A DNA stretch of 6,926 nucleotides from Escherichia coli (GTDB lineage Bacteria; Pseudomonadota; Gammaproteobacteria; Enterobacterales; Enterobacteriaceae): assembly GCF_003334385.1 (NCBI RefSeq), contig NZ_QOWN01000075.1. One strand, written 5' to 3'. Positions 6,731 through 6,926 of this stretch are shown here, piece after piece. Each line of letters starts with the position of its first letter. Positions within the stretch are counted from its first letter, which is position 1. The notes under the pieces were generated by a model, which ran no database searches, had not been told where the DNA came from, and was given only the letters and a program-made list of their open reading frames with translations. Position numbers and translations under genes: made by a program.

Positions 6731-6771
6731 ATGCGAATCGCTGATCGGACTTCGATGCCAATCCGTGATCG
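6731..6771 (-). repeat. IS21-family right-end terminal repeats (two inverted copies of the left-end 17-mer, each with GATC)
   Basis: ATGCGAATCGCTGATCG (6731-6747) and ATGCCAATCCGTGATCG (6755-6771). The reverse complement of the second matches the left-end copy CGATCACGATTTGGCAT at 15 of 17 positions. Confidence 0.75.
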
Positions 6772-6813
6772 AATAGAGCGGAATACGCAGCGGAGGCTCA
6801 CACCTTTGACTCT

Positions 6814-6926
6814 GTGAAATTTATTCTGACCACCGCTCTCGCCGGTGGCCTGCTGGCTGTTCCCCTGCAGATCAAAAACATTCAGCAGAACGGGATCACA
6901 CCAGAAGATATCAGCAAGGAAATTAA
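6814..6926 (+). CDS. Possible 5' end of a hypothetical protein with a hydrophobic N-terminus, running off the window (3' partial); start uncertain
   Basis: Frame is open from 6769 to the window end with coding-like codon usage (VKFILTTALAGGLLAVPLQIKNIQQNGITPEDISKEI). The only candidate start is GTG 6814, with no clear ribosome-binding site. It may instead be the distal part of a gene interrupted by the IS21-family element. Confidence 0.25.
   Translation, partial: MKFILTTALAGGLLAVPLQIKNIQQNGITPEDISKEI

Follow-up and report, generated by a model that had tools for sequence, protein, structure and literature searches.

The window analysed here, a stretch of 6,926 nucleotides of Escherichia coli DNA, covers part of an agn43-yeeR region in which all features lie on the plus strand. 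Its left part holds the 3' end (C-terminal part) of the agn43/flu autotransporter gene (1-1019, stop codon at 1017-1019). Positions 1-1110, comprising the 3' end of an Ag43/Cah gene and the spacer downstream of it, align to 4609-5718 of locus L002 with 93% identity, and locus L001, a near-identical relative of the window, has the agn43 stretch as a pseudogene under the name 'autotransporter domain-containing protein'. An IS66-family element (ISEc49-like; tnpA, tnpB and tnpC) follows at 1111-3853, as delimited by the PGAP annotation in L001 and L007 and by its target duplication, the 8-bp sequence GCATTAAC, which is present at 1103-1110 and at 3854-3861 and occurs as a single copy at the empty site in L002. 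This element is positioned 30 bp upstream of ATG 3891, the start codon of yeeR, and separates yeeR from agn43. By alignment to intact alleles, a 5' fragment of yeeR was found at 3882-4151, consisting of a Shine-Dalgarno sequence (GGAG at 3882-3885), the ATG, codons 1-88 and the first base of codon 89. This fragment (3891-4151 from its start codon) directly adjoins the left end of a second insertion sequence.

The second insertion sequence is an ISSso4-like element of the IS21 family (4152-6789; 2638 bp, TG...CA termini), the ends of which were set by the copies in L003, L004 and L005. In four copies with different flanks, the element begins with TGCAAAATGG and ends with GAATACGCA. Along its full length, the window copy shows 99.5-99.7% identity to these three independent copies, which reside in unrelated plasmid contexts; their istB product is named 'IS21-like element ISSso4 family helper ATPase' by PGAP. 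The consecutive genes istA (4384-5918) and istB (5935-6690), assigned from the PGAP names in L001, L003 and L005, reproduce the organisation of the IS21 family. Multiple terminal repeats, serving as transposase-binding sites, are typical of IS21-family ends, and the motif TTGGCAT resembles them: the interval 4181-4279 holds five direct copies, spaced by 22-24 bp, and 6755-6761 is a single inverted one, adding up to 6 observed matches compared to 1.5 expected by chance. The window copy shares with ISSso4 the TG...CA ends, the presence of TTGGCAT in both ends and the istA and istB genes, but differs from it by a 1-bp deletion in istA and a damaged right target duplication. The former concerns one A lost from the A-run at about 4741 (4735-4745) in comparison with the three intact copies, and the frameshifted istA appears as two ORFs (4273-4878 and 4725-5918); istA of L001 is also annotated as frameshifted and carries the same lesion. 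Since istA is split, the copy in the window is probably unable to transpose on its own.

At the right edge of the window, a frame that starts directly after TGA 6766-6768 is free of stop codons from 6769 up to the last position, 6926 (52 codons; translation SNRAEYAAEAHTFDSVKFILTTALAGGLLAVPLQIKNIQQNGITPEDISKEI), and contains the hydrophobic stretch FILTTALAGGLLAVPL at 6820-6867, in agreement with the first-pass annotation. That annotation had also pointed out that neither an ATG nor a ribosome-binding site precedes GTG 6814, which is borne out by an in-frame start scan and by inspection of the 20 nt upstream: GTG 6814 is the sole in-frame ATG, GTG or TTG of the open frame, and no Shine-Dalgarno sequence at a useful spacing occurs in those 20 nt (AGGCTCACACCTTTGACTCT), the GGAGG at 6792-6796 being too distant at 17 nt from the GTG. 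An open length of 52 codons is in itself unremarkable in this window. Its six frames contain 470 stop-free stretches, of which 66 reach at least 52 codons, a number compatible with a chance open frame, and 50 ORFs of at least 50 aa are listed. It is homology to yeeR, and not length, that identifies the frame as real coding sequence. Both the frame and the sequence are those of codons 89-132 of a conserved family of 838-aa proteins, and the open frame lacks a start codon with a ribosome-binding site; the yeeR homology refutes the alternatives of a chance opening and of a separate gene, small or new, that starts by itself, and leaves them practically no probability.

The impression of a coding frame coming straight out of the right end of the IS21-family element proved to be correct in so far as the frame is indeed open there, but the frame is composite. 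Positions 6769-6789 (SNRAEYA), as indicated by translation and by comparison with other copies of the IS, still belong to the element, 6790-6793 form a remnant of the target-site duplication, and yeeR sequence resumes from 6793. The frame seems to emerge from the element only because, after TGA 6766, no stop codon in the yeeR frame happens to occur in the terminal 21 nt of the IS or in the 4-nt remnant. A translational fusion of IstB to the open frame was considered as well, SNRAEYA lying in the istB frame; it is ruled out by three intervening stops, namely TAA 6688, TGA 6742 and TGA 6766.

Alignment to intact alleles places codons 89-132 of yeeR (EAHTFDSVKF...SKEI) at 6793-6926, the first 134 nt of the distal fragment, of which the continuation could be seen in L001. 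Between 6794 and 6926, the window and the intact yeeR alleles are in the same frame and differ by one mismatch of the synonymous type (C/T at 6849). This part also includes predicted transmembrane helix 4 (residues 95-113) at 6811-6867. Taken together, the two fragments represent codons 1-132 with approximately 97-99% nucleotide identity to yeeR. At the insertion point, the uninterrupted alleles of L002, L007 and K-12 read ...GGTAAACATATCGCGCTGG|AGGCTCACACC...; the left flank in the window stops at 4151 and the right flank restarts at 6794 with the very next base of the intact alleles, while 3854-4151 corresponds to the spacer upstream of the intact gene followed by codons 1-88. In L001, which has an identical junction, the distal frame runs uninterrupted for 752 codons to the yeeR stop and its product is 96.8% identical to residues 87-838 of the YeeR protein of L007. 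A megablast search of 6700-6926 against complete E. coli genomes (n=5,426) yielded 10 genomes matching the whole query, with both IS junctions common to all ten; among the matches listed, the partial ones fall within a gene annotated as 'hypothetical protein' and cover the query only from base 84 (window 6783) onward. L001 is one of the ten, and PGAP describes its 5' piece as 'incomplete... missing C-terminus' and its 3' piece as 'incomplete... missing N-terminus'.

We therefore consider it nearly certain that the open frame represents the first part of the distal yeeR fragment, the gene having been split at codon 89 by the ISSso4-like element. This corresponds to one of the options put forward in the first-pass annotation, which tentatively proposed that an IS21-family insertion had split a gene and left its distal part as the open frame: both flanks are yeeR and adjoin each other in intact alleles. 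A homologue of which the N-terminal part matches sequence to the left of the element had also been anticipated, around 4092-4165. The side and the adjacency to the IS were right, codons 1-88 being located there, but the fragment occupies 3891-4151 and starts well before the guessed interval. The split itself, its two junctions and the identity of both halves are read directly from these alignments, and the position at which the family starts from those discussed below. The ISSso4-like element transposed into codon 89, which is situated in the loop that joins predicted transmembrane helices 3 and 4. An IS-split yeeR pseudogene is in itself already known, annotated and ordinary, and the consequence is one of correct annotation, as a piece of a yeeR pseudogene and not as a gene, with little wider import.

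Intact yeeR was found in L002 (5748-8264) and L007 (4292-6808), where it encodes an 838-aa product. The match in L002 lies 253 nt inside this 2517-nt gene, which is located between the Ag43/Cah autotransporter gene and an IrmA-family gene. Over 507 aa, this product shares 99% identity with YeeR of K-12 (b2001), encoded by the gene after flu in cryptic prophage CP4-44; the full-length protein of pathogenic E. coli carries the newer PGAP name 'YeeR family protein' (e.g. WP_094970776.1, strain TUM17543). In CP4-44-like islands of E. coli, yeeR occupies the middle position of the agn43(flu)-yeeR-irmA operon. Gene order is in line with this assignment: the 3' end of agn43 is present at 1-1019 of the window, and irmA is found downstream of yeeR, whether the latter is a remnant (L001) or intact (L002 and L007). 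Where the family starts was determined from alignments of 13 and 36 sequences. All 35 full-length homologues (30-66% identity) start at the upstream MLQ/MxQ N-terminus, a hydrophobic N-terminus equivalent to ATG 3891 in the window (MLQI...), and three shorter E. coli proteins (746, 691 and 558 aa) have the same upstream start and differ by internal in-frame deletions. No member of either set starts at the equivalent of GTG 6814, and the distal fragment therefore has no start of its own. A start and ribosome-binding site belonging to the open frame, together with homologues beginning at the same position, would have spoken against a split gene; the homologues instead begin at the upstream N-terminus.

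The target site of the ISSso4-like element is imperfectly duplicated. Reading both junctions against the intact site gives a left copy (G)CGCTGG at 4145-4151 and a right remnant GCGG at 6790-6793, whereas GCGCTGG (7 bp) or CGCTGG (6 bp) is expected, a difference corresponding to a loss of 3 bp. Three other ISSso4 copies have clean target duplications of 6, 7 and 6 bp. A textbook simple insertion is thus incompletely reproduced in the window, and a secondary loss of 3 bp has to be assumed; a later 3-bp deletion is the simplest explanation for the imperfect duplication. Alternatively, the present arrangement might not result from one simple insertion but from recombination between two ISSso4 copies or from another rearrangement next to the IS, as the GCGG in place of GCGCTGG would allow and as the frequent occurrence of both the island and the IS in multiple copies in E. 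coli genomes (up to 34-36 matching places per genome) would facilitate. Against this, the flanks are exactly contiguous apart from the 3 bp within the duplication and belong to the same gene and even the same codon, a contiguity which recombination between independent insertions would almost never restore. In addition, the identical GCGG remnant is found in L001, which points to a single inherited event. We consider such a recombinational origin very improbable and retain a simple insertion into yeeR codon 89, followed by a small deletion.

With regard to expression, some UPEC strains are reported to transcribe agn43-yeeR-irmA as one unit under OxyR/Dam control (PMC4807369). In CFT073, it was shown experimentally that an IS between agn43a and yeeR abolishes expression of the downstream yeeR-irmA genes and of IrmA (PMC4807369). 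IS-mediated disruptions of agn43-yeeR-irmA are frequent (PMC9431211), and irmA can have its own promoter in strain 042 (PMC9431211; PMC6480617). In the window, a consensus scan of 6400-6926 revealed no promoter-like site, a hybrid outward promoter at the IS end included, and no terminator-like structure between the istB stop and the end of the IS. Because no terminator-like site was found, read-through transcription of the distal fragment from the IS, as suggested in the first-pass annotation, is possible judging from these scans, but it would proceed without a usable translation start. We infer that the distal fragment is an untranslated piece of a pseudogene, since it has no start with a ribosome-binding site, three in-frame stops lie between it and istB, and the promoter has been lost.

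The opposing view is that the distal fragment is still expressed, either because transcripts leaving the IS, through istAB read-through or from a promoter at the IS end, are translated with GTG 6814 or a codon further inside the frame as start, or because they drive irmA. The lack of a terminator-like structure between the istB stop and the IS end would permit this, a GTG is available in the open frame, and the distal frame has remained uninterrupted for the 752 codons seen in L001, although an intact distal frame may just mean that the insertion is recent. To the contrary, the promoter scan of 6400-6926 was negative, GTG 6814 has no Shine-Dalgarno sequence at a functional spacing and no homologue starts there, the IS upstream of yeeR in CFT073 stops yeeR-irmA expression (PMC4807369), and irmA can be served by a promoter of its own (PMC9431211). 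Continued expression of the fragment is hence very unlikely, and the same small likelihood applies to the specific scenario of transcription leaving the right end of ISSso4 and translation beginning at GTG 6814 or an internal Met in spite of the fragment having no promoter or start of its own. If it were true, a YeeR variant without the first three membrane helices would be made or, alternatively, the immune-mimic gene irmA would be under control of the IS and not of OxyR/Dam phase variation.

The whole agn43-yeeR stretch is decaying. The 5' fragment of yeeR carries a 4-bp deletion (GGCA) at 4079, within the repeat GCTGGCTGGCAGGCG, which throws everything beyond codon 63 out of frame, so that the reading ends at TGA 4089-4091. 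This deletion is absent from L001, L002, L007 and all 10 genomes with the same junctions, and may either have arisen late in this allele or be an artefact of assembly. In comparison with the intact copy in L007, the IS66-family element has a 13-bp deletion at 1597 (tnpB), which is common to L001, and a 10-bp deletion at 2652 (tnpC), which is unique to the window; L001 in turn is devoid of 76 bp that are kept in the window at 2195-2270. The closest relatives among complete E. coli genomes differ from the window by these 4-bp, 10-bp and 76-bp indels.

The order of events may be derived from which genomes share which lesion. At least 11 complete genomes carry the IS66 insertion but lack ISSso4, their yeeR being intact, for which reason the IS66 insertion probably came first. 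In the proposed succession, the IS66-family element would have inserted 30 bp upstream of the yeeR ATG, after which ISSso4 would have inserted into codon 89 of yeeR, and small deletions would have accumulated subsequently, costing the yeeR 5' fragment 4 bp, the right-hand target copy 3 bp, istA 1 bp, and the IS66-family element 10 bp and 13 bp. Upstream of the equivalent of window position 1, at 1-3389 of L001, the closest complete genome, agn43 is split by the IS4-like element IS421. In total, three different IS interrupt about 9 kb of the agn43-yeeR region in L001; the annotation gives irmA and the island genes further downstream as intact there.

Similar arrangements are known at this locus. 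The yeeR gene of K-12 (b2001) and the gene encoding the 838-aa YeeR are the same gene as that in the window, downstream of agn43/flu and, in relatives, upstream of irmA; in K-12, however, yeeR is truncated at its 3' end to 510 aa (PMC4807369), whereas in the window it is split by an IS at codon 89, carries a frameshift at codon 64 and has been separated from agn43 by a second IS. The agn43a-yeeR-irmA operon of UPEC strain CFT073 (Moriel et al. 2016, PMC4807369) likewise has an IS between agn43 and yeeR, the IS in the window being of the IS66 family and the two being compared by position, but in the window yeeR itself is interrupted as well, by the IS21-family element.

YeeR itself belongs to an uncharacterised, widespread and strongly conserved proteobacterial family, which is a property of the family and not of the split allele. 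Homologues of approximately 820-850 aa occur in gamma- and betaproteobacteria, among others in Enterobacteriaceae, Pseudomonas, Shewanella, Methylomonas, Herbaspirillum, Cupriavidus, Dyella and Stenotrophomonas, and all of them carry PF27347 (YeeR_C); the corresponding region lies beyond the right edge of the window and is present in P0001, the representative of a 98%-identical cluster. Profile searches with YeeR gave only noise in a copy of Pfam-A without PF27347 (E >=0.04), no match in NCBIfam, and weak matches to PDC-M09B in PADLOC (E ~1e-5). Searches of PHROGs and PDB sequences returned weak tape-measure-like matches to the Gly-rich C-terminal region and no significant relative of solved structure; none of these matches suffices for a functional assignment. 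No conserved neighbourhood was seen around a distant homologue in a Pseudomonas locus (L008). From hydropathy, helices are predicted at about residues 1-23, 28-50, 62-80, 95-113 and 137-157, and in the AlphaFold model of YeeR (mean pLDDT 77.6) a helical membrane region at the N-terminus is followed by a middle part of mixed alpha/beta structure and then by a helical, Gly-rich C-terminal part. The middle part contains four invariant cysteines (C333, C336, C356 and C360) and the invariant motif GHG..AE...N...D...NGADR...QTKY.
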